IMG/VR virus record: IMGVR_UViG_3300014205_000001
Span: 189,413-253,412 of that record
Direction: 5' to 3' (one strand)
Source: a virus
Lineage: Duplodnaviria > Heunggongvirae > Uroviricota > Caudoviricetes
DNA length: 64,000 bases
The number at the start of each line of letters is the position of its first letter. The first letter of the stretch is position 1. The notes beneath the pieces are model-generated. The model was not told where the DNA came from, made no database searches, and worked only from the letters and a program-made list of their open reading frames with translations. The translations under genes were made by a program, and so were the position numbers. Positions 22,973 through 51,468 of the stretch are shown here, one piece after another.

Positions 22973-23563
22973 ATGTTACAAATACTACAAGAATACGAAA
23001 AAGGTACGATTTTAAACGTTTTAGACCTTTCTAATCATCACTTTAAATCATTAGATGTGGATTATTATCCACCTCATGTTGAACGAATTAGTATTAATAT
23101 CGGTAACTACCGTTTATATTTTCATGTCTTACATCCCTGCAAAGCTGGTGAAAGTTTATATCATTCACATCCGTGGGCAAGCGCAATTCATGTTATTTCA
23201 GGTAATTATGAAATGGGATTAAGTTTTTCAACAGATGAAAATGATTTAATTGACGTCGAATCAGGTAAATATAATGAACAACGTGCAAAAGACGAAATTT
23301 GTAAAATTCAAGTTAATTCAGGCATGTATTACGAAATGCTGAATAAACATGGTTGGCATTATGTTCGTCCTTTAGGTACACAACCATGTTATTCAGTAAT
23401 GATGACAGGTAATCTTCTATATAAAGGTGGTAAAGCTCCTTACGAATTAAAAGAACTTTCAGATAAAAGAATTACTGAAATCAAACAATGGTTTTTCGAC
23501 CATTACTATAATAATACAGATAAATATTATCAACAATACAATAAATTATGGGCAAAAAAGTAA
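22973..23563 (+). CDS. Cupin-fold protein
   Basis: YHSHPW....HVISGNYE and HGWHYV resemble cupin metal-binding motifs. Confidence 0.55.
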   Translation: MLQILQEYEKGTILNVLDLSNHHFKSLDVDYYPPHVERISINIGNYRLYFHVLHPCKAGESLYHSHPWASAIHVISGNYEMGLSFSTDENDLIDVESGKYNEQRAKDEICKIQVNSGMYYEMLNKHGWHYVRPLGTQPCYSVMMTGNLLYKGGKAPYELKELSDKRITEIKQWFFDHYYNNTDKYYQQYNKLWAKK

Positions 23564-24831
23564 AATTAGTTTACGTCTCAGTTGAAGACGGTAAAACTGA
23601 ACAAAGCAATAAGTTTTACGACATGGAAGAAAATGATGACGGTACATATACTGCAACCTGGGGTCGTTATGGCGCACCTAATCCTAGTACTCAAACAAAA
23701 AGTATGAACGAATGGCAAAAAACTTACAACAGTAAAGTCAAAAAAGGTTATCGTGATCATACAGAATTATTTATTGTTGAAGATTCCAAAGGTGGTACAA
23801 CTAAAAAAGCAACTACTGTAAAAGACTTTATTAAAACCAGAACGCAATCTGTTATTAATTTAGTTAAACGTTTACAATCCTGGGCCAAAGGTAGTATTGC
23901 TGAAAATTATACTGTATCATCTGAATCAGTAACTCAAAAACAAATCGATAAAGCACAAGTCATGCTGAATGAATTAACAGCATTGGATGTGAAAAAAGAT
24001 TTTGTACCTTTCAACAAATTATTGTTGGAATTTTTTACAGTTGTTCCTCGTAAAATGAAAAACGTAAAGGACCATATTATTTCTGCTGATAAATTAGGCG
24101 ATGATGGTAAAAAAATGTCGAACAATGATCAGAAAAATAAAATAATTACTGACGAACAAGGAACATTAGACGTTATGGCAGGTCAAGTATTATTGAATAG
24201 CAATGTTCATGAACAAGAAACTGACGAACCAGAAGTTGAAACAGATATTATTAAAGCATCAGGTTTGGAATTAAAAGATGTTACAGATGCTGTTGTCATT
24301 AAACAAATTAAAGAATTAATGGCAGATGATAAAGGTAAATTCAAAGAAGCATTTGAAGTTGTCAACAACCAAACTGCTACTGCACACACCAAACATTTGG
24401 ATAAAGCTAAGAATAAAAAAATGGAATTATTCTGGCATGGTTCCCGTAACGAAAATTGGTGGTCAATCATGACAACAGGATTATTAATACGTCCTTCCAA
24501 TGCAGTTCATTCAGGTTCGATGTTTGGTGATGGTATTTATTTTGCAGATAAATTTCGTAAAAGTTTTGGTTACACTTCAGGACGTGGAAGTTATTTTGCA
24601 AATGGAAGTAGTAACGAAGCAATTCTTGCTATTTACGATGTTCACGTAGGTGAACAAAAACATATCAAACACCACGATAGCAGCTGTTATTCTTTATCAG
24701 CAAAGGTTTTAGCAAAAGACGGATTTGATTCAGTCTTTGCACATGGTGGTGCTGATCTTCGTAACAATGAGTACATTGTATATCAATCACCTCAATCAAC
24801 AATTAAATATTTAGTAGTCGTAAACGCATAA
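23548..24831 (+). CDS. PARP-like ADP-ribosyltransferase with WGR, regulatory and catalytic domains
   Basis: NKFYDM...TWGRYG (WGR); FFTVVPRK (regulatory helix); LFWHGS, GSMFGDGIYFAD..RKSFGY, NNEYIVY (H-Y-E triad). Confidence 0.92.
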   Translation: MGKKVKLVYVSVEDGKTEQSNKFYDMEENDDGTYTATWGRYGAPNPSTQTKSMNEWQKTYNSKVKKGYRDHTELFIVEDSKGGTTKKATTVKDFIKTRTQSVINLVKRLQSWAKGSIAENYTVSSESVTQKQIDKAQVMLNELTALDVKKDFVPFNKLLLEFFTVVPRKMKNVKDHIISADKLGDDGKKMSNNDQKNKIITDEQGTLDVMAGQVLLNSNVHEQETDEPEVETDIIKASGLELKDVTDAVVIKQIKELMADDKGKFKEAFEVVNNQTATAHTKHLDKAKNKKMELFWHGSRNENWWSIMTTGLLIRPSNAVHSGSMFGDGIYFADKFRKSFGYTSGRGSYFANGSSNEAILAIYDVHVGEQKHIKHHDSSCYSLSAKVLAKDGFDSVFAHGGADLRNNEYIVYQSPQSTIKYLVVVNA

Positions 24832-30823: not shown

Positions 30824-33800
30824 TTAATAACCTGCTTTTTTCAAAGCCTGTTCTAATTCAGATAAATCACTAATCCAAATGTCGCCAGGCTTTAATGATT
30901 TATATATCTTGTATTCGTCTTTTAAATCTTTCACAAGTTGCTTAATTTCTTCATATTTTTCTTTTGTGAAGTGATAAATAGGAATGTTAAGTAAATAATC
31001 GAAACTGTCGTTCATTTTAGCAAATTCCATGTCAATTAAATCTTTAACGACAGCATCTTTTTTACGATTGTTAACTACGACGTCGCCTTCAATTACAAAT
31101 TTAATGAAAGTTAAGATGTAGTTGTTTTTAGTTACTTTATCTTCTAATGATTTTAACCATGCTGCTTTTCTTTTGTCGTAATATTCTAAACGAATATCGA
31201 ACCAAGTATTTAAAAGTTGTTCGGCTGATTCCCATTTAACAATTTTAGTTCCTATGAATGAGTGCATATTGTTCATTGAAATAGAACTACTTAATTTTAA
31301 TAACGATTCAATTTCTGTAGATTTTGTATCATCTTGTAAGATTACTTCGATGTGAATATCGTTGTCAGTTGAATTATCAATATAATTTCTGATTTTCTTT
31401 TCATCACATAAACGATCTAAGAAAATCACATAAGCTTCTGTCCAAACATCAATAGGAAGTTCAGTAATCAAAATACCTTTTTTACTATTTTGATAAACAC
31501 CTTTACTGATGTAAGCATTTTTTTCACTGTTAAATTCAATTTCACCTTTGAACTTATTATAGTCAGGATGAATTTTATATTTTAAATCAGATTTTTCAAT
31601 TTTCTTTTTAATTACTTTAATTAAATCCATCGGACTAAATTTAGGAACGGAAGTTGACCAACCTGTACCGATACCTTCAACACCATTTAATAATATTGTT
31701 GGTATAATAGGTAAATAAAATTCAGGTTCAATATAAGTATCTTCAAATTTATTCCAATTTAAAATACTTTCATCTTCTTTACGAAATACGAATTTAGTTA
31801 AGGGATTTAAAAATGTATGAATATAACGTGAAGCAGCTGAAGCGTTTGGATTTAAACGATTTGCGAAGTTACCTTGTGGCCATAAAAAATTAATATTATT
31901 AGTACCTACAAAATCTTGAGCCATACCCACAATAGCACCTTCCATACTTGCACCACCATGCATGTAATGTGTGTGATTACCTACATACGAAGCGAATTGT
32001 TCTACTTTCATTTCTTCCTTTTCTGTTGTACCTAATGTTTTAAAAGCACCAAACATAATTTTACGTTGAGTAGGTTTAAAACCGTCAATAGTATTGGGTA
32101 AGGAACGAATATTATCGTAGTTACTATATTGAATATGTTCGTTATCAATGAAATCGTTAATGTGATTATCTTTACCAAATTTGTTAGGAATAACTTCACC
32201 TTTGTAAGTTAATAACCAATCTTTACGATCTTGTACACGATCTTTTTTGAATAACATGTCAATTTTATCATTGTCGCGTTTAGGTAAATAATCAAAACGG
32301 ATAAGATGACGATCTAATTTACTGAAAAATGTTTTCATTAATTCAGCAGTAATAGTACCTAAACCTTTATAGTATTTAGCGTACCAACCATCAATTTTAC
32401 CTTTTTCTTTATCTTGTTCGTATTGTAAAAGATCATAATATTCTTTTGCTTCTTTACCTTTTTTAGCAATAATAATTGGTGTTACAAATTCATAACAAAA
32501 ACCTAATTCTAATAATTCAGGCCAGAATTGATGAATCATATTGATTAATAATCCTTTAATATTAGTACCGTCAGCATCAGCGTCAGTCATAAAAATAACT
32601 TTACCATAACGTAATTCTGCAACCGAAGTATATTTTTTGCCAGGTACAAGACCTACAATTTGAAAGATTTTTTGAATTTCTTCGTTTTCAGTAATTTTAC
32701 TAATTTTTGCATCACGTACATTTAATGGTTTTCCACGTAAAGGGAATACACCATAATAATCACGACCTACAACACTTAATCCTGTTACTGTACTACCTTT
32801 TGCAGAATCCCCTTCGGCTAAGAATAAAGCGCATTTAAACCCTTCACTAGTTCCTGCTTTGTGTGCGTCAACTAATTTATCAATACGTAAAGTTTTACCT
32901 GCTGCTTTTTTATTAAGCTTGTTTAATTCCATTTGTTCTTTCATCTGAACCCAAGCTAAAATGTTTTCGATGATTTGTGACTTCATTAATTTTTTGTATA
33001 ATCCATCACTTAATTCAAATGAATCTTCAATTTTCAAACTCATGTTTTCTTTGGTTTGAGAATCAAAACTTGGATTAGCAATTTTTGATACAAGAAACAA
33101 GTGAAACTTGTTCTTTATATCACTTGAACGAATTTTAATACCTTTGTTACCACGTGTAAGATCAGCTGTAAGACGTTTAATAATTTGATTCATGACATAA
33201 TCAACATGAGTACCCCCTTGCCATGTTGTATTACCGTTAACAATACTACAATGATCAAAATTTTCACCTTTGGATTCGGCTAAAGCAATTTGCCATTTGT
33301 CATTGATATTTTCAACAAATAATTCATCTTCAGGATTTAAGTGCATGGTTGCCCAGTCTTTGATATTGTCGATTTGAATTAATTTATCATTAAAAAATAC
33401 TTTTACTTTAGGATTATATACTGCAACGTCAATAACACGTTTTAAAAATATTTTTAAAGTTGCTTCTTCTAATCCTACAATTGGTAAACGATTAAAATCA
33501 GGTGTATATGTTACTGATGTATAAGATTTGGAACTGCTTTTAATTTTAGGTGTACTACGTTTTTGTAAATTTTCACATAATTCTTGATAATATGAATTAG
33601 TACCGTCAGCACAATCAATAATAAATTTACTACTAAAGAGTGACACTAAACTAGAACCCAAACCGTTACGACCTGCACCATATCTTTGTTCTGTATCATC
33701 ATAATTGGAACCTGAATTTAAATGTCCTAATAACATTTCAGGTAACCACATATTATGTTCTTTGTGTTTTACTACTGGAATACCTTTACCATCGTTCCAT

Positions 33801-34099
33801 ACATTGATAGTAAAATCTTTATCTACTGTAACTTTAATATTTTTTACACCACCACCACGATGATAATGATCAGATGCGTTGGTTAAAATTTCATCAAATA
33901 ATTTGATGAATGCTGGTTTGTATGTTAAAAGCTGTTTAACAATTTTGATATTATCTAAATCATTAATGTCTTTAACTGCCCAAATTGCTTTTTCTTGCTC
34001 GATGATAGAACCTAAATTAGTATCGGGTCGAAGCAATATTTGTTCTTCCTGTGTTAACTTCTGATATTCTTCTTCAATGCTTTTTACTTTTGTTGTCAT
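30824..34099 (-). CDS. Type IIA DNA topoisomerase, single polypeptide (ATPase + TOPRIM + breakage/reunion)
   Basis: FDEILTNASD, GRNGLG, AEGDSAKG, PLRGKPLN, MTDADADG, YKGLGT, DGFKPTQRK, ASRY (catalytic Tyr). Confidence 0.95.
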   Translation of the reverse strand: MTTKVKSIEEEYQKLTQEEQILLRPDTNLGSIIEQEKAIWAVKDINDLDNIKIVKQLLTYKPAFIKLFDEILTNASDHYHRGGGVKNIKVTVDKDFTINVWNDGKGIPVVKHKEHNMWLPEMLLGHLNSGSNYDDTEQRYGAGRNGLGSSLVSLFSSKFIIDCADGTNSYYQELCENLQKRSTPKIKSSSKSYTSVTYTPDFNRLPIVGLEEATLKIFLKRVIDVAVYNPKVKVFFNDKLIQIDNIKDWATMHLNPEDELFVENINDKWQIALAESKGENFDHCSIVNGNTTWQGGTHVDYVMNQIIKRLTADLTRGNKGIKIRSSDIKNKFHLFLVSKIANPSFDSQTKENMSLKIEDSFELSDGLYKKLMKSQIIENILAWVQMKEQMELNKLNKKAAGKTLRIDKLVDAHKAGTSEGFKCALFLAEGDSAKGSTVTGLSVVGRDYYGVFPLRGKPLNVRDAKISKITENEEIQKIFQIVGLVPGKKYTSVAELRYGKVIFMTDADADGTNIKGLLINMIHQFWPELLELGFCYEFVTPIIIAKKGKEAKEYYDLLQYEQDKEKGKIDGWYAKYYKGLGTITAELMKTFFSKLDRHLIRFDYLPKRDNDKIDMLFKKDRVQDRKDWLLTYKGEVIPNKFGKDNHINDFIDNEHIQYSNYDNIRSLPNTIDGFKPTQRKIMFGAFKTLGTTEKEEMKVEQFASYVGNHTHYMHGGASMEGAIVGMAQDFVGTNNINFLWPQGNFANRLNPNASAASRYIHTFLNPLTKFVFRKEDESILNWNKFEDTYIEPEFYLPIIPTILLNGVEGIGTGWSTSVPKFSPMDLIKVIKKKIEKSDLKYKIHPDYNKFKGEIEFNSEKNAYISKGVYQNSKKGILITELPIDVWTEAYVIFLDRLCDEKKIRNYIDNSTDNDIHIEVILQDDTKSTEIESLLKLSSSISMNNMHSFIGTKIVKWESAEQLLNTWFDIRLEYYDKRKAAWLKSLEDKVTKNNYILTFIKFVIEGDVVVNNRKKDAVVKDLIDMEFAKMNDSFDYLLNIPIYHFTKEKYEEIKQLVKDLKDEYKIYKSLKPGDIWISDLSELEQALKKAGY

Positions 34100-43479: not shown

Positions 43480-43501
43480 TATTTCACACAAAGCAGGTGA
43501 A

Positions 43502-43531
43502 AGGCTCAGGATAACTATCCTGGGCTTTTTT
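43502..43531 (+). terminator. Intrinsic terminator after the sigma gene
   Basis: GCTCAGGAT-AACT-ATCCTGGGC-TTTTTT. Confidence 0.85.
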
Positions 43532-43572
43532 CATTTTACATAGTAAAGGTATATAATTGTATAGAACTTTCT

Positions 43573-44049
43573 ATGACATATACGTACTCTGACTTTTACC
43601 CGTACATACCCGATTTAAAAAATTACATTCGAAGCAAAATCAAAACAGATCATTGGAAGGATGTTCTGCAGGATACGATGTTGTATCTATTTATGAAATT
43701 CGATTCGTTAATAATTACCAATCTGAAAGGATTGTTATTAAATGCTGCACGATTTTTTGTTAATCAATATTATCGAGGTACTAAAATTAAATTTGATGAT
43801 ATTGATTTGTGTTATAACATATCTGATCGTGATCGTCATGTATTTAAAATAGATCATTGGAATGCAAATGAGATTGATGATATTTTATTACGTAATTTAC
43901 GAACAATCAAAAAGAATTTATACGAACCTTTTGATATGCAATTAAACGGCAAAACAATTAAGGAAATCAGTGATAAATTAAATATCAATGAAAATACAGT
44001 AAAAACAAGAATTAAACGTGCAAAGGAATATTTAAAACAAAATTTATGA
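43573..44049 (+). CDS. ECF-type sigma factor
   Basis: DVLQDTMLYL (region 2) and GKTIKEISDKLNINENTVKTRIKRAK (region 4 HTH). Confidence 0.85.
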   Translation: MTYTYSDFYPYIPDLKNYIRSKIKTDHWKDVLQDTMLYLFMKFDSLIITNLKGLLLNAARFFVNQYYRGTKIKFDDIDLCYNISDRDRHVFKIDHWNANEIDDILLRNLRTIKKNLYEPFDMQLNGKTIKEISDKLNINENTVKTRIKRAKEYLKQNL

Positions 44050-44486
44050 GTAAAGACTATAGTGGATTAGCACTTCGTATGAAAAATTACGAAGCAATAA
44101 ACAGGAATTTTTTAATGCCTAACATGAACAACGTGTTACGGTTAGACGGTCGTGCGTTTCATACCTATACGAAGAAATTCAAACGCCCTTTTGATGATGA
44201 ATTGATAAATGCTATGGATGCAGCTGCAATTTATTTATGTAGTAACATTCAAGGTGTGAAATTTGGTTACGTACAAAGTGACGAAATCAGCATCTGTTTT
44301 ACTGATTATGATAATTATGAAAGTACATTGTGGTACGATGGTAATATTCAGAAAATTGTTTCAGTATCAGCTTCTATGTGTGCAGCTAAATTTAATCATG
44401 TAAGAACACAACAAATTGTTAAGAAATTAATTGATACAGATTCAGATACAAACGATAGTACATTTATTCAAACAGCTTTCGGATAA
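44046..44486 (+). pseudogene. Thg1-like (tRNA-His guanylyltransferase/3'-5' polymerase), C-terminally truncated
   Basis: RMKNYE, RLDGRAFHTYT, GYVQSDEIS, QKIVSVSAS; stops at 146 aa where the conserved FDxR...WRQ half should begin. Confidence 0.75.
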
Positions 44487-44510
44487 ATTAATTTTTATCC
44501 GGGATTTTTA
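44478..44510 (+). terminator. Terminator-like hairpin overlapping the Thg1 stop codon, upstream of the plus-strand tRNA array
   Basis: TTCGGATAAA-TTAATT-TTTATCCGGG-A-TTTTTT. Confidence 0.65.
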
Positions 44511-44527
44511 TTTAGATAAATAAATTA

Positions 44528-44600
44528 CGAGATGTAGCGAAGTTGGTATCGCGCCTGGTTTGGGACCAGGAGATCGCAGGTTCGAGTCCTGTCATCTCGA
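44528..44600 (+). tRNA. tRNA-Pro(UGG)
   Basis: CGAGATG/CATCTCG, CCTGG-TT TGG GA-CCAGG, TTCGAGT. Confidence 0.95.
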
Positions 44601-44612
44601 CAAACATTAAAT

Positions 44613-44699
44613 GCTCCTGTCGGCTAGCGGTCTATGCCACAACACTTTCAATGTTGAAGATCAGAAATGGTCTCGCGGGTTCGAATCCCGTCTGGAGTA
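44613..44699 (+). tRNA. tRNA-Glu(UUC) with a long variable arm
   Basis: CAACA-CT TTC AA-TGTTG; variable hairpin AGATCA-GAAA-TGGTCT; GCGGG-TTCGAAT-CCCGT. Confidence 0.85.
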
Positions 44700-44724
44700 C
44701 AAGTTCTTTAAAATAAAAATATAC

Positions 44725-44799
44725 ACCGGCGTGGTCCAGCCTGGAGTGGATGCCGCACTGTCACTGCGGAGATCGCGGGTTCAAATCCCGTCGCTGGTG
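44725..44799 (+). tRNA. tRNA-Asp(GUC)
   Basis: ACCGGCG/CGCTGGT, CCGCA-CT GTC AC-TGCGG, TTCAAAT, G73. Confidence 0.93.
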
Positions 44800-44805
44800 C
44801 AATAT

Positions 44806-44896
44806 AGTCGCTTAGTTTAGAGAGTAGCAAAATGCTACATGGTTTGAATACTTCCATTTCGGGAAGAGGTTGTGGGTTCGACTCCCATCGCGACTG
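44806..44896 (+). ncRNA. tRNA-like RNA with a hairpin inserted in the D-loop and a 6-nt anticodon loop
   Basis: AGTCGC/GCGACT acceptor, GTAGC-AAAAT-GCTAC insert, CTTCC-ATTTCG-GGAAG, GTGGG-TTCGACT-CCCAT. Confidence 0.65.
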
Positions 44897-44908
44897 CTAA
44901 AATAAATA

Positions 44909-44981
44909 CCGTGGGTGGAGTATGATGGTTGTATAACCCGTTGTCTGCGGGATGGAGGGGTTCGATTCCCACATTCACGGC
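44909..44981 (+). ncRNA. Degenerate tRNA-like sequence (GUC-like loop)
   Basis: CCGTGGG/TTCACGG acceptor, CCCG-TTGTCTG-CGGG, GGG-TTCGATT-CCC; D- and T-stems poorly paired. Confidence 0.5.
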
Positions 44982-45250
44982 TGTTAATAAAAAGTAAAAA
45001 TAAAAACGATGACTAAATTAGTTTATGATCACAAAGCGTTACCGTTCATATTGGAAGCTTTAGGATTTAAAAAGAAAAAAGGTTTAGTTGTAGATGCTAC
45101 AACTGATGAAAGACCTAACGGTAAAAAAATAAAAGCAAATAAAATAATTGCAATTCAAAAAGATAAAGAAACAGGGCAACCTAAATTTTATACAAATGAA
45201 GCACAATTAGTAGGAGATGTATTAAGAGATAAATTTGGACCTTTTCTATA

Positions 45251-45478
45251 ATGATTTATCTTTGTGATAACAAACGACATTTAATTTGTCAGCCATATAG
45301 TATTGAAAACTTACATTTAATGGCACAACAATTACAAATTAATAGATGTTGGTATCACACAGGAAAGTTTCCACATTACGATATACCCAAAAGAAGAATT
45401 GAAGAAATAACAAACAAATGCAAAATAATAAGTAGTCAAGAACTACTAAAAATTATACAAAATGAAAACAACAGTTAA
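45251..45478 (+). CDS. DUF4031-like small protein
   Basis: LHLMAQQL.I.RCWY...PHYDIPK. Confidence 0.6.
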   Translation: MIYLCDNKRHLICQPYSIENLHLMAQQLQINRCWYHTGKFPHYDIPKRRIEEITNKCKIISSQELLKIIQNENNS

Positions 45479-45515
45479 CACATATTATTGGTATTATTAT
45501 AAGCTCTTTAAATGA
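45462..45515 (+). CDS. Putative attenuator leader peptide MKTTVNTYYWYYYKLFK
   Basis: Translated by hand; five TAT codons in YYWYYY. TGATAAGG at the stop codon duplicates the 3' arm of the downstream terminator. Confidence 0.82.
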   Translation: MKTTVNTYYWYYYKLFK

Positions 45516-45538
45516 TAAGGAATAGCATTGTTATGTAC

Positions 45539-45568
45539 AAAGCCCTTATCGTTGATAAGGGCTTTTTT
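45539..45568 (+). terminator. Attenuator terminator upstream of two tRNA-Tyr genes
   Basis: AGCCCTTATC-GTT-GATAAGGGCT followed by TTTTT; tRNA-Tyr starts 11 nt later. Confidence 0.88.
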
Positions 45569-45578
45569 ATTTTATAAG

Positions 45579-45660
45579 GGTCAGTATGCAAGTGGCTAAA
45601 GCAGAATGTCTGTAAAACATTTCCGTTTACGGTTCGTAGGTTCGAATCCTACCTGGCCCA
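45579..45660 (+). tRNA. tRNA-Tyr(GUA) copy 1
   Basis: GGGTCAG/CTGGCCC, AATGT-CT GTA AA-ACATT, variable arm CCGT-TT-ACGG, TTCGAAT. Confidence 0.93.
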
Positions 45661-45672
45661 CTTAAATTTAAT

Positions 45673-45754
45673 GGGATATTATACCGTAGAAGTAGCGGGA
45701 CCGCCTGTAAAGCGGTTGTCTTCGACTCGGGTGGTGCAACTCCATCATATCCCA
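45673..45754 (+). tRNA. tRNA-Tyr(GUA) copy 2 (divergent body)
   Basis: GGGATAT/ATATCCC, ACCGC-CT GTA AA-GCGGT, variable arm GTC-TTCG-AC, T-loop TGCAACT. Confidence 0.88.
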
Positions 45755-45755
45755 C

Positions 45756-45959
45756 ATGAAATATATAGAAATGAATAAGAACATATCAATACAGAAGACA
45801 AATAATTATTTTATTGTCACGATACATTTTTTACACGATATACAAACTTTTGCATATTCAGAAGAAGATATAGATGTTGCAGTGGAAGAAGCAATTTTAT
45901 GTTTCATTCAAGCAAGTAAAAAATTTGGTAAAGGATTAGTAAAAGAATTAAACGGATAA
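45756..45959 (+). CDS. Small protein with a weak HicB-like N-terminal fold
   Basis: YFIVTI...IQTFAYSEEDIDVAVEEAILCF resembles the HicB beta-beta-alpha core. Confidence 0.35.
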   Translation: MKYIEMNKNISIQKTNNYFIVTIHFLHDIQTFAYSEEDIDVAVEEAILCFIQASKKFGKGLVKELNG

Positions 45960-45965
45960 CAATAA

Positions 45966-46080
45966 GGGGCGATTAAAAGTGGTAAAAAAGTAAATTGGTA
46001 GAAATTTACTGACAGCAAAACAAAAATTTAAACAAACTGTAAATTTGCAAAGAGGCAGTGTTCGAATCCTGCTCGCCCCA
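45966..46080 (+). ncRNA. 115-nt tRNA-like RNA (perfect acceptor stem and T-arm, A-rich expanded core)
   Basis: GGGGCGA/TCGCCCC-A, GCAG(T)G-TTCGAAT-CCTGC, internal hairpin AGTAAATT-GGTAGA-AATTTACT. Confidence 0.6.
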
Positions 46081-46460
46081 CAATTTTCTAAAGATGCTAA
46101 TAATGCATATAATTGTAATATGCTTTTAGAAGGTGTCGATAATAACCACAACAAACCTGGGATAAATCTCAAAAAATATAATGTAGACAATTTAACTGAT
46201 TTTGATCTTACTTATAAACGAATTGAAGATAACACAACAATGTCCTGGTATTACGAAGTCTGTCTTAATAATAAATTAATTGGTAATATTAAATGTATAA
46301 ACGATTCAAATTATTCAAGTCGTTGTACAAAAGTACGTTTTACATTTACATCAGAAGCCAACAATTATTGTATTTATGGAGATTCAGGTGAAACTTTGGA
46401 TGACTTGAAAGAAAAATTAAATTTACAGATAAAGAATCCAATTAAATTTATAATGAAATT

Positions 46461-46943
46461 TTGGGAAAACAAATAAAAATGATTGATTTAAAAAAGGTAC
46501 AACAAAAAATCGTTTTAGAAACTGATTTACAATTTGACAGAAAAGAAGATGAGGATGCTTTAACAGCTTTTATTGAAGTTGTTTTTAATGGTCACAAAAT
46601 AGGTGCAATTAGACATACTGTTCGTGCCAGAGTAAGTAATGGACAAATTAATGGATATGATTATTTTTATAATTATTTCAGTTACAATCAAGTTATAAAA
46701 GTAACTTGGGAGTATCGTGATTTGCCTTCAATTAAAGATCAGATTAAAGAAGAAATTGAAAAATATATTGAAAATACATATCTCTTATTTAATTTACCCA
46801 AACCTGAAGTTAAAATTGACGAAGAAACTTTATTTGATAATTCTGAAGAAGAATTACGAAAATTAACTGAAGCTGAGTATGAATTAACTAAAGATAAGTT
46901 AGAAGTACAGAGAAAAATAATTGATAAAATTATAAAATCATAA
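46461..46943 (+). CDS. Hypothetical protein
   Basis: 160-aa ORF with a coiled-coil C-terminus. Confidence 0.5.
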   Translation: MGKQIKMIDLKKVQQKIVLETDLQFDRKEDEDALTAFIEVVFNGHKIGAIRHTVRARVSNGQINGYDYFYNYFSYNQVIKVTWEYRDLPSIKDQIKEEIEKYIENTYLLFNLPKPEVKIDEETLFDNSEEELRKLTEAEYELTKDKLEVQRKIIDKIIKS

Positions 46944-47485
46944 TGTTTCCAATTCTTCATTTTAAAAATAAATTACCGACAAAAACAGAACCTGGCAGTT
47001 TTGGTTTTATTCGTAAACATGATATTCATACAGGCGTCGATTTATACACTGAAACGAAAGAATTGATTTATACGATGGAAGATGGTTATGTTGTAAGAAC
47101 AGGTCATTTTACAGGTGAACAAGTCGGTACTCCTTGGTGGAATAATACTGACTATATTTTAATTCGTAGTAAAAGTGGTTGTATCTTGTATGGAGAAATT
47201 GAATTAGTGCCTCAATTTATAAGACCCATGGTAAATGAATTTGTAGAAGCAGGCACAGTAATCGGTTATGTAAAACCCGTTTTAAAGAAAGATAAAGGTC
47301 GACCAATGAATATGTTACATATTGAATTGTACGATCATAACTATAATGGTGATGGTGTTGTATGGAATTTAAACGAACCCAAACCTGAACAATTAAGGGA
47401 TATTACACCCTTATTAAAAAAGGAATTTAACCGTCAAAAACCTCTTTTTAGAAGGCTTTTAGGTTATATTGGGATTAATATATAA
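46943..47485 (+). CDS. M23-family peptidase-like protein
   Basis: HTGVD (HxxxD) and MLHIE motifs; GTVIGYV. Confidence 0.7.
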   Translation: MFPILHFKNKLPTKTEPGSFGFIRKHDIHTGVDLYTETKELIYTMEDGYVVRTGHFTGEQVGTPWWNNTDYILIRSKSGCILYGEIELVPQFIRPMVNEFVEAGTVIGYVKPVLKKDKGRPMNMLHIELYDHNYNGDGVVWNLNEPKPEQLRDITPLLKKEFNRQKPLFRRLLGYIGINI

Positions 47486-47490
47486 GATAA

Positions 47491-48003
47491 GTGGAGAACC
47501 TATTAGAATACATAGAAGACAGACGTATCAAAAACAAATTGCATTTTGATATGAAAGAATGTGAAGAGTATATTACGACTAAATATACGTCCAGTGAAGC
47601 TAATATTTATAAACGTTTCTTTTATTACGTTCGTGAAAAAGTATATGATTCATTTGTAATGTACGAAAATAATTTATTTGAACTTAAAATTCGTGGTAAA
47701 TTAAATACACCGTTTTTCGAATTTGAAAAGGATGAAGATTATATAAAATGGTTACGTGATCGTAAAGAATTTTATGCATCAGTTAATACTATTGAAAATT
47801 TCAGAATGTTGAATTTTTTAGAATTGAGTTTAATGAATTTTATTACTGATTTAACTACATTACAAGAATATGAACTAATTGCACCTGACGGGAGTACTAA
47901 AAATTTCAAAAAGATTGGATATGGCACTGACCAAGACCAACAATCTTTCATCAAATATCTAGGTCGAAAATTCAAACAAGGTTTTACTTTTAAAGCAATT
48001 TAA
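47491..48003 (+). CDS. Hypothetical protein
   Basis: 170-aa ORF (GTG start). Confidence 0.5.
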   Translation: MENLLEYIEDRRIKNKLHFDMKECEEYITTKYTSSEANIYKRFFYYVREKVYDSFVMYENNLFELKIRGKLNTPFFEFEKDEDYIKWLRDRKEFYASVNTIENFRMLNFLELSLMNFITDLTTLQEYELIAPDGSTKNFKKIGYGTDQDQQSFIKYLGRKFKQGFTFKAI

Positions 48004-48005
48004 TT

Positions 48006-48449
48006 ATGACAAAAGAAACAATAAATGCAGCGCATATTAATGCGATCAAATCGAAAGATGTAGTAGCGAAAGCACTATTTTCAACATTCAAAGGAGCATT
48101 GGATAATGAATTAAAAAATGGTTCACCTAAATCAGAAAAAGAAATTATCGAATCTATTGCAAAAAAGTTTACTGAAAATGCAAAGATTATGGGTACAATT
48201 GAAGCTGAACGTGAAATTGAATTATTGAAACAATTTCTACCTGCTGAATTAGAAGATCATTTATATAACGAAGAAGTAAAAATTGTTGTAGAAAACAATT
48301 TAGGTCTTGCGGAACAAATTCAACAAGGCAAAGCCAATTCAGGAAAATTAATTGGATTAGTAATGGGACATTTAAAAAAGAAATTCCCAGGGGTTGCTAT
48401 TAATCCTGAAACTGTAAAAGAAGTATGTAATTTATTAATTACTGCGTAA
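48006..48449 (+). CDS. GatB/YqeY-domain protein
   Basis: AIKSKD....LFSTFKGAL...EREIELLKQFLPAEL...GKLIGLVM. Confidence 0.75.
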   Translation: MTKETINAAHINAIKSKDVVAKALFSTFKGALDNELKNGSPKSEKEIIESIAKKFTENAKIMGTIEAEREIELLKQFLPAELEDHLYNEEVKIVVENNLGLAEQIQQGKANSGKLIGLVMGHLKKKFPGVAINPETVKEVCNLLITA

Positions 48450-49388: not shown

Positions 49389-50034
49389 GGAAAAAACTGT
49401 AAAAAAGCATTATTCTCGTTCTGGGTATAATGGCGACTTTACCTACACATCAGTGTGTGGCAAAAAAGTAAAAACTCATCAGGACACGGAAGACAGCACC
49501 GTGCATCCCGAAAAAGCAAATTGTAAAAAATGTTTACAAACAGCTGAATACAAAAAGGATATTGCAAAATGTCCTGTCGATATAAAAAATCGAATTTACA
49601 TTGAGTCAGATATTTTGCAAGCTGACGAATTTCGTTCCGCCCAACGTGACGTTGTGGATTTAATTACAGCCAAAGGATTAAAATACGTTGATCGTGTTTT
49701 TTCAAAAGTATTGGATAAAGCATGGCACGATTTGGAAACTACCTGGAAAGCTGTAAAAGAAGCGGATGAAATTTACGCGACTTCTTCACTGATTCCTTTA
49801 TCTGGTGGTTCTTATATGGGTGCACCTGTAATATTCAATGGAATGTGTGAACGTGCTGTTAAAGAAGGTATTAAAGGCAAATCTGTTTATATTTTAAATA
49901 CTTTAAAAAATATCAATTGGTATATGATAAAGTTGGATGTTATGCAAAAAGCATTTACCGATAACGATTTGTACATGTGGGACGAAGATTACGACAAAAT
50001 GGTTAAAATTGACGTTTCAAAGGTCAAAAAATAA
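49381..50034 (+). CDS. Hypothetical protein with an N-terminal Zn-binding motif
   Basis: H...VCG...CKKC. Confidence 0.5.
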   Translation: MTKEKTVKKHYSRSGYNGDFTYTSVCGKKVKTHQDTEDSTVHPEKANCKKCLQTAEYKKDIAKCPVDIKNRIYIESDILQADEFRSAQRDVVDLITAKGLKYVDRVFSKVLDKAWHDLETTWKAVKEADEIYATSSLIPLSGGSYMGAPVIFNGMCERAVKEGIKGKSVYILNTLKNINWYMIKLDVMQKAFTDNDLYMWDEDYDKMVKIDVSKVKK

Positions 50035-50507: not shown

Positions 50508-51468
50508 CTATGAGCATGACAGAAGAACAAATTCACGCAAAAGTTGCAAAATTATTTGACGATAATGAATTAACAATTCGTGCATCACGAGTTGTTGTAC
50601 CCACAGATCATTTAGATCAATTTGTAACTGACCCAATCGATCAAATGCATGTCATTTTAAATGCGAAAGCGTATCGATTACAAATTCCAAGTAATGTCGC
50701 AAAAGGTATACGTAATAGTCTTCAGACACCTGAAAGTGACAAACAGAAAATTTGTCTTAAATATGATTTGACAAATTATTGTAAGAGTAGTAATTTAAAA
50801 GAAATTTGTAGATTTGCAAAAAAGCAAATTGGATTATCGGAAATATTTGATCAGTTCATGGATGTTCGTAAAGATACATTCACTGAACCAAGTCATTTTA
50901 ATTCCATGATGGAATATTTCTTTAAATACATGCCTTTTGTTACTATTCAAAAATATTGTGAATTTACGACCAATGATTTTACAACTGAACTCACTCAAAA
51001 AATTTCCTTTATTCATGACAAATTAGAAATGATCGCAGTCGATTATAGCAAATGAAAGTAACAATCACGACATTAAAAATTCCTTACATTGAAGCAATTA
51101 AATTGCTTCGTGAAAAAGACACAAGTAAAACAATTACTGAATGTCAGAACTTTATCAACAAAAATACTGATAAAGTGAAAATTATTGATCGCTATACAAA
51201 TGAATACGATTTATTGAACGAAATGTTTAATATGACAAGTGAACCTTATTCAAATGACGAAAAATATGAATTGTTAAGGATTCAGGAACAGGACGAAAAA
51301 GCAAAAAAGACACTTGCAGCCTGGGAATGGATTGATGACAATGTAAACGATGAAGGTAAAGCACATATTAATTTTTTAATTGATAACGGTGGACCTGGTC
51401 CTGCTTGTGGTTAATATGAAATACATTAAATACATAAAACTCTTTTTAATTGGGCTATTAAGTTTAGC

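Follow-up and report, generated by a model that had tools for sequence, protein, structure and literature searches.

A candidate leader-peptide transcription attenuator upstream of the tyrosine tRNA genes of a jumbo phage

The tyrosine tRNA genes of the phage described here are quite probably gated by a ribosome-mediated leader-peptide transcription attenuator, a reading that draws on sequence comparison and on RNA folding models. The virus record comprises 391,061 bp (31% GC) with terminal repeats, and the window, the whole 64,000-nucleotide stretch of DNA that was analysed, corresponds to its bases 189413-253412; positions given below are those of the window unless marked as genome positions. 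An earlier sequence-only reading of the same DNA had proposed a leader-peptide attenuator at this site, and the proposal appears to be supported: the site has a short open frame whose start looks efficient, a run of codons that match the tRNA genes downstream, an intrinsic terminator with no promoter motif detected before the tRNA, and an antiterminator that folding models show to be exposed or hidden according to ribosome position. Elsewhere in the window the phage encodes a 427-aa protein with a PARP catalytic domain and a WGR domain (23548-24831) and a fused GyrB-GyrA-type topoisomerase II of 1091 aa (30824-34099).

The tyrosine unit lies directly behind a gene on the plus strand for a 75-aa DUF4031 protein (PF13223; 45251-45478), which ends in the stop codon TAA at 45476-45478. 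The candidate leader open reading frame, MKTTVNTYYWYYYKLFK (45462-45515, plus strand), begins within the final 17 nt of that gene in a different frame and consists of 17 codons followed by TGA, with an ATG AAA start as in the other five leaders of the phage. On re-reading, its codons are ATG (45462) AAA ACA ACA GTT AAC ACA, then the regulatory block TAT TAT TGG TAT TAT TAT (YYWYYY; 45483-45500), then AAG CTC TTT AAA and TGA, which confirms the five TAT codons that had been reported. DUF4031 homologues share the same end point, and the tyrosine block is therefore outside the gene and unconstrained by DUF4031 coding. Immediately after the block comes the predicted antiterminator strand (45501-45520), identified by minimum-energy folding, duplex ranking and ribosome-mask folding, which has two parts: AAGCTCTT at 45501-45508, with the terminator 3′ arm (45557-45564) as its predicted partner, and AATGATAAGG at 45511-45520, which includes the stop codon and would pair with the 5′ arm and loop (45544-45553). 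The element TGATAAGG at 45513-45520 had been described as a copy of the terminator 3′ arm, and the two indeed share GATAAGG (45554-45560 in the arm).

The intrinsic terminator (45539-45575), likewise verified, has a 12-bp stem (45539-45550 / 45554-45565) containing five GC pairs, a GTT loop and a T-rich tail of the form T6-A-T4. It is followed by a class II tRNA-Tyr(GUA) gene at 45578-45661 on the plus strand, called by ARAGORN and scoring 54.7 bits with Rfam, which is the sole canonical tRNA-Tyr of the whole genome; the gene is where it had been placed, but the spacing of 11 nt given for it is corrected to 9-10 nt after the T-run. The second tRNA-Tyr gene of the sequence-only reading (45675-45752, plus strand) has a GUA anticodon within the anticodon loop CUGUAAA, a long variable arm and an atypical T-loop, and is a real, if borderline, tRNA-like gene (28.7 bits against the Rfam gathering score of 29, with no ARAGORN call). 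Other tRNA-like sequences are found nearby. A gene at 44806-44896 (32.2 bits, no ARAGORN call) carries a 24-nt insertion in the D-loop region and is followed at about 44900-44990 by more tRNA-like sequence, also without an ARAGORN call, and an RNA of ∼113 nt at 45962-46075 combines a tRNA acceptor stem and a canonical T-arm with a long AT-rich insert containing ACAGCAA (46012-46018).

The rarity of the tyrosine run was assessed by six-frame translation of all 391,061 bp, scored for at least five identical residues in six codons. Such identical-residue runs number 277 genome-wide, and a single one, that of the leader, is composed of tyrosine in 782 kb of strand sequence; the genome's one canonical tRNA-Tyr lies 95 nt further downstream. 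The probability that one run would land within 150 nt upstream of tRNA-Tyr is ∼2 × 10⁻⁴, and tyrosine accounts for 5 of 16 leader codons against 4.7% expected. By these sequence statistics, the placement of the run is not a matter of chance. A comparable case is the run Q-W-Q-Q-Q-Q, 113 nt upstream of two tRNA-Gln genes in a genome with three glutamine runs in total. The leucine run LVLLFL was set aside, being the terminator of the leucine cluster read in another frame; the real leader of that cluster is the ATG AAA open reading frame upstream of it.

At minimum energy, 45455-45577 folds into the antiterminated form and not into the terminator. In this fold 45544-45553 is taken up by AAUGAUAAGG (45511-45520, with the stop codon) and 45557-45564 by AAGCUCUU (45501-45508), so that the antiterminator, formerly put at 7-8 bp, is actually ∼18 bp long, comprises two helices and pairs both terminator arms. 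The segment has a folding z-score of -3.2, and none of 200 shuffled sequences was equally stable. When the 5′ arms of all 262 terminator-like hairpins of the genome were each paired with the 70 nt upstream, the duplex of the tyrosine unit (-13.0 kcal/mol) ranked second of 262, and the six tRNA units of the phage ranked 1, 2, 3, 8, 10 and 17 (Mann-Whitney p = 2.3 × 10⁻⁵).

The effect of ribosome position was modelled by masking the ribosome footprint and refolding the RNA, both at equilibrium and with a transcript ending before the 3′ arm. At equilibrium, the modelled probability of the tyrosine terminator is 0.31 without a ribosome, 0.01 with a ribosome at Y8 and 0.97 with a ribosome at the stop codon. 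In the transcript ending before the 3′ arm, the probability that the 5′ arm is sequestered is 1.00 when the ribosome is on any tyrosine codon and 0.12 when it is at the stop codon, in line with the ribosome-position logic that had been put forward for this site; if the footprint is set at +12, the outer antiterminator helix is already perturbed when the ribosome is on the last tyrosine codon. The shorter transcript was modelled because equilibrium folding of whole units reproduces the switch in the tyrosine unit, reproduces it partially in the serine unit and does not in the others. All six units move in the same direction in the folds that precede the 3′ arm. At equilibrium the terminator is favoured in five of the six units, and antitermination must therefore be kinetic. 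In the valine and glutamine units, termination also results when there is no translation, as in classical attenuators, and both have an anti-antiterminator (1:2) hairpin. For the tyrosine unit, 1:2-type pairing could be made out by eye only as a weak all-AU/GU match of the TAT block with AUGAUAA, and the model gives read-through without a ribosome. Lacking a convincing anti-antiterminator, with the untranslated state predicted to read through, the tyrosine unit would therefore work only if the leader is efficiently translated.

The same arrangement recurs within the genome. Terminators and ATG open reading frames were listed upstream of every tRNA, and a unit was taken to have a terminator within 100 nt of a tRNA, a definition framed after the data were seen, but on position and not on composition. 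A real intrinsic terminator stands ahead of seven tRNA blocks, and six of these also have an ATG-AAA open reading frame of 17-28 codons ending no more than ∼30 nt from the terminator. A leader rich in L, I, T, C and M precedes four tRNA-Leu genes, one unassigned tRNA and genes for Ile, Thr, Thr, Cys, Ile, Ile and Met; a leader with the core VVGQQGAAAV precedes Val, Ala, Gly and Gly and then the glutamine unit, in which the core QWQQQQ precedes two tRNA-Gln genes; the core YYWYYY precedes tRNA-Tyr and the Tyr-like gene; and the core SSRSASSRRRS precedes Ser(UGA), Arg(UCU), Arg(ACG) and Arg(UCG). The phenylalanine unit is on the minus strand, with a leader (11262-11339) whose core KKFNKHNNHNFWFN is rich in K, F, N, H and W, an intrinsic terminator at 11202-11234 with a 13-bp stem and T-tail, and genes for Phe, an odd tRNA, Trp, Lys, Asn and His, the Asn gene being found by Rfam and missed by ARAGORN; 17 of its 24 leader codons are read by the downstream tRNAs. 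Between its tRNA-Phe and tRNA-Trp genes, at 11043-11113 on the minus strand, is a tRNA-like gene of 36.5 bits with an apparently enlarged anticodon loop.

The match between leader residues and downstream tRNA identities sums to 61, compared with a mean of 21.5, and no other of the 720 permutations does as well; leader codons read by the downstream anticodons exceed phage codon usage (Fisher combined p ∼3 × 10⁻¹⁷). The correspondence extends to isoacceptors, with GGG and GGC for two tRNA-Gly genes and AGA, CGC/CGT and CGG for three tRNA-Arg genes. Generality had been argued from two cases, and this argument now extends to six codon-matched units here and to analogues in the two other phages described below. 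The hairpin at 44477-44504, before tRNA-Pro/Glu/Asp, was left out of the units; it is without a short leader and follows a 146-aa Thg1-like open reading frame. That frame (N-terminal part of PF04446 only; frame and hairpin together span 44046-44504) has an Asp/Thr-rich tail and its stop codon lies inside the 5′ arm of the hairpin, a layout unlike that of the six units. A TGG codon occurs within or directly after the codon run in four of the six leaders (YYWYYY, at 45489-45491; QWQQQQ; AAAVW; FWF); Trp is cognate in the phenylalanine unit only, and TGG makes up 1.2% of codons.

Translation of the leader would have to begin without a Shine-Dalgarno (SD) sequence. The SD core motif precedes 7 of 188 long open reading frames, compared with 6.4% of random sites, and on this count the phage does not use SD sequences. 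The regions upstream of its starts are A-rich and G-poor, and the commonest second codon is AAA (15%), which is present in all six leaders; the start context of the tyrosine leader fits these SD-less, A-rich starts. The opening ATG AAA ACA ACA GTT AA (45462-45482) is nearly identical to that of a Ser/Arg leader (∼375420) in the 642-kb phage LR756502.1 and also resembles the Ser/Arg leader of the present phage (genome 302507), with TVNT common to both. The tyrosine leader had been called unrelated to the first attenuator noticed in this DNA; taken against all the other leaders it is not wholly unrelated, its initial codons resembling those of the Ser/Arg leaders. Leaders may evolve by exchanging the codon run on a shared start module.

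With respect to transcription, the leucine, valine and Ser/Arg leaders are each located ∼45-50 nt downstream of a common promoter-like element, TTTTCA-N17-TATAATTGT (consensus TTTTCA-N17-T(C/A)TATAATTGTA; genome 27140-27090, 45910-45860 and 302455-302507, respectively), and the tyrosine, glutamine and phenylalanine units lie within longer operons. The phage-type promoter closest to the tyrosine unit on its upstream side is a promoter-like site TTTTCA-18-TATAAT at 43528-43557 on the plus strand, likely the origin of the transcript that reaches the unit; the next phage promoter 12-mer on this strand occurs at 46105, just past the tyrosine block. An internal promoter between the terminator and tRNA-Tyr had been named as an observation that would count against attenuation. 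Motif scans, which unfamiliar promoter types may escape, turned up neither a sigma-70-like motif nor a Bacteroidota -7 motif (TAnnTTTG) nor the phage 12-mer between the terminator and 45578.

Related arrangements were detected in two other phages. The public LR756502.1 genome (642 kb) contains six leader-terminator-tRNA units, for which the observed leader-tRNA matching is again the best of 720. One of them has a Ser/Arg leader similar to that of the present phage. In the others, a K/H/F/N/W leader is followed by Phe, His, Phe and three Lys; an I/G/A/V leader by Ile, three Gly and Ala; a D/Q/P leader by two Pro and three Asp; an uninterrupted stretch of seven Gln by four tRNA-Gln genes; and a leader in which Tyr occurs three times and Glu three to four times by Glu, Tyr, Glu, Tyr and Glu. 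Two clear units are present in Caulobacter phage phiCbK (JX100813.1), one with a promoter-proximal open reading frame (51341-51439; core QFVRQIQVV) and a strong terminator before Phe, Val, Ile, Ile, Val, Gln, Gln and Ile, and the other with a 45-codon frame (49540-49677) composed almost entirely of S, A, L, T, K, P and H before Pro, Pro, Lys, Lys, three Leu, Ala, Ser and Ser. A possible third phiCbK unit (48081-48143) has a TTGACA promoter-like sequence, a 20-codon open reading frame and a T-run hairpin before tRNA-Glu and tRNA-Asp; its frame contains two Glu, one Asp and five Thr codons, a weaker match than in the two clear units.

As controls, five unrelated phage loci with tRNAs lacked cognate leaders, and a DNA pattern coding for YYWYYY had at least 117 sites in IMG/VR, with none near a tRNA among the matches listed. 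The comparative search for Tyr-rich leaders, suggested earlier, yielded the Glu/Tyr leader of LR756502.1 but no orthologue of the tyrosine unit, and searches of IMG/VR, INPHARED and metagenomes disclosed neither such an orthologue nor a close relative of the phage. The nearest protein relative shows 77% identity, and at four IMG/VR loci with DUF4031 relatives the downstream arrangement is not shared. A search with a tRNA-Tyr 22-mer gave a single match, in an unrelated phage; no relatives were found for the downstream 67-aa open reading frame or the topoisomerase II gene, and none of the metagenome sequences matched a leader-specific pattern. INPHARED entries are similar at the tRNA level or the DUF4031 level only, and Chryseobacterium phage MA9V-1 and Flavobacterium phage MaF61 lack tRNAs and were therefore unsuitable for comparison.

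It is proposed that the transcript comes from upstream, through the DUF4031 gene, and that a ribosome would initiate at the ATG at 45462. With ample charged tRNA-Tyr, the ribosome would pass the five TAT codons, reach TGA and cover 45501-45520, allowing the terminator (45539-45565) and its U-tract to form, and RNA polymerase would stop 10 nt before tRNA-Tyr. If tyrosine decoding is slow, the ribosome would instead wait at 45483-45500 and leave 45501-45520 free to capture the terminator 5′ arm once it is made, in which case no terminator would form and both tyrosine tRNA genes would be transcribed. Because the tRNA product would relieve the stall, the arrangement would amount to a negative-feedback supply loop, and the phage would have six such units, the tyrosine unit among them, each matched to the tRNAs that follow it. 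Translation of the leader, its coupling to RNA polymerase and regulated read-through are the parts of this scheme that we infer.

Three other explanations of the locus were weighed. The hairpin is found 60 nt past the stop codon of a real gene, and it could be an ordinary end-of-operon terminator of the DUF4031 gene, with the open reading frame and tyrosine run arising by chance in an AT-rich spacer and the tRNAs made by leaky read-through. At 31% GC the trinucleotide TAT is frequent, the leader frame has no SD sequence and no orthologue was found with which to compare it, but this explanation is extremely improbable given a tyrosine run that is unique in the 782 kb and sited before the only tRNA-Tyr, an antiterminator ranking second of the 262, five more units with a codon-to-tRNA match, the same pattern in two other phages and negative controls, both at the five tRNA loci and at the YYWYYY sites among the matches listed. 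It is also very improbable that the switch operates independently of the ribosome, through direct binding of tRNA by the codon repeats or UGG in the manner of a T-box, or through a bound protein. The alternative structures exist irrespective of translation, UGG lies within or beside the codon run in four of six leaders, and the T-box contacts the NCCA end of tRNA via a UGGN bulge. Against this, no match to the T-box covariance model (RF00230) or another riboswitch was obtained within 43500-47500 at E-values up to 1; all six codon runs are in frame with ATG AAA and meet no stop before the antiterminator, an improbable outcome in AT-rich DNA; and as many as five amino acids are represented in a leader, more than one binding pocket would read. 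Weak Rfam matches to the PyrR-binding and PyrG leaders (RF00515 and RF02371; 26.9 bits against a threshold of 54 and 31.6 against 65, respectively), in which only the hairpin and U-tract aligned, were rejected, as were those to SpF51 and MicX, as hairpin-plus-U-tract likeness.

A translated leader that senses tyrosine decoding could alternatively act on the processing or stability of the tRNA precursor, or through the peptide itself. RNases must cut the precursor near the leader, and some attenuator leader peptides and RNAs are reported to act in trans (PMC7298713 and PMC6614838). An output of this kind is nevertheless improbable, as a canonical GC-rich hairpin and U-tract stand ahead of the tRNA, 10 nt from it here, and likewise in all five sister units, the competing helix hits exactly the terminator 5′ arm, and leader peptides vary between units and phages save for the cognate residues. 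Transcription attenuation by ribosome position is the preferred reading.

Leader-peptide attenuation of amino-acid operons is textbook knowledge, the enterobacterial examples being trpL, hisL, pheL, leuL, thrL and the multivalent ilvL. The tyrosine unit resembles trpL-type attenuators in its predicted parts, namely a short translated open reading frame, a regulatory codon block, an intrinsic terminator and an antiterminator set by ribosome position, and its sister units are multivalent like ilvL, although the tyrosine leader has no sequence homology to any of these six leaders. Unlike trpL-type systems, it would regulate tRNA genes and not biosynthetic enzymes, so that the product itself decodes the sensor codons, and it is viral and situated inside an operon directly behind a protein gene; unlike trp, it has no clear 1:2 hairpin and its untranslated state is predicted to read through. 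In Escherichia coli the pheM leader attenuator controls pheST, which encodes phenylalanyl-tRNA synthetase. The likeness to pheM is that of a cognate-codon leader over a component of the translation apparatus for the same amino acid, but pheM controls a synthetase protein in a cellular genome, whereas the tyrosine unit would control the tRNA genes themselves. With T-box riboswitches the tyrosine unit would share the reading of the state of one tRNA species and the choice between terminator and antiterminator; a T-box, however, needs no ribosome to bind uncharged tRNA directly and is marked by a conserved Stem I and T-box sequence. The enterobacterial leader-peptide attenuators of amino-acid operons are reviewed in PMC1183508, and no published description of leader-peptide control of tRNA genes was found among open-access papers and preprints.

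The sequence-only reading had stated that retron-Eco7 PtuAB degrades tRNA-Tyr and that phage tRNA-Tyr can rescue infection, which agrees with Azam et al. (2024; PMC11555353), where the T5 tRNA-Tyr protects against PtuAB and the T1/T7 tRNA-Lys counters PrrC. As in T5, the phage tRNA-Tyr would replace a tRNA that can be depleted in infection. The T5 gene is under a strong promoter according to the same paper, whereas the gene described here would lie behind a conditional terminator, and no tRNA-Tyr-targeting defence is known for the host of this phage. The unit may serve an anti-defence purpose; general supply-and-demand control fits its anatomy equally well.

Considered together, it seems fairly likely that phages of unrelated lineages, namely the present jumbo phage (SD-less, of Bacteroidota type), LR756502.1 with its 642 kb and phiCbK of Caulobacter, adjust their tRNA supply by sensing demand, a block being transcribed only when the pool for its codons is short. 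If so, the shortage could be triggered by codon mismatch, host shut-off or tRNA-cleaving defence nucleases, and the tyrosine unit would be an inducible answer to tRNA-Tyr depletion. The units would be compact, modular parts that convert a tRNA shortage into transcription and would be usable as reporters for tRNA-targeting defence systems, and phiCbK on Caulobacter is a cultured system suited to a direct test of attenuation. Phage tRNA genes would then be regulated sensors of host decoding capacity and not constitutive codon-usage patches, and their leaders would constitute a readable list of the codons that the phage expects to run limiting.
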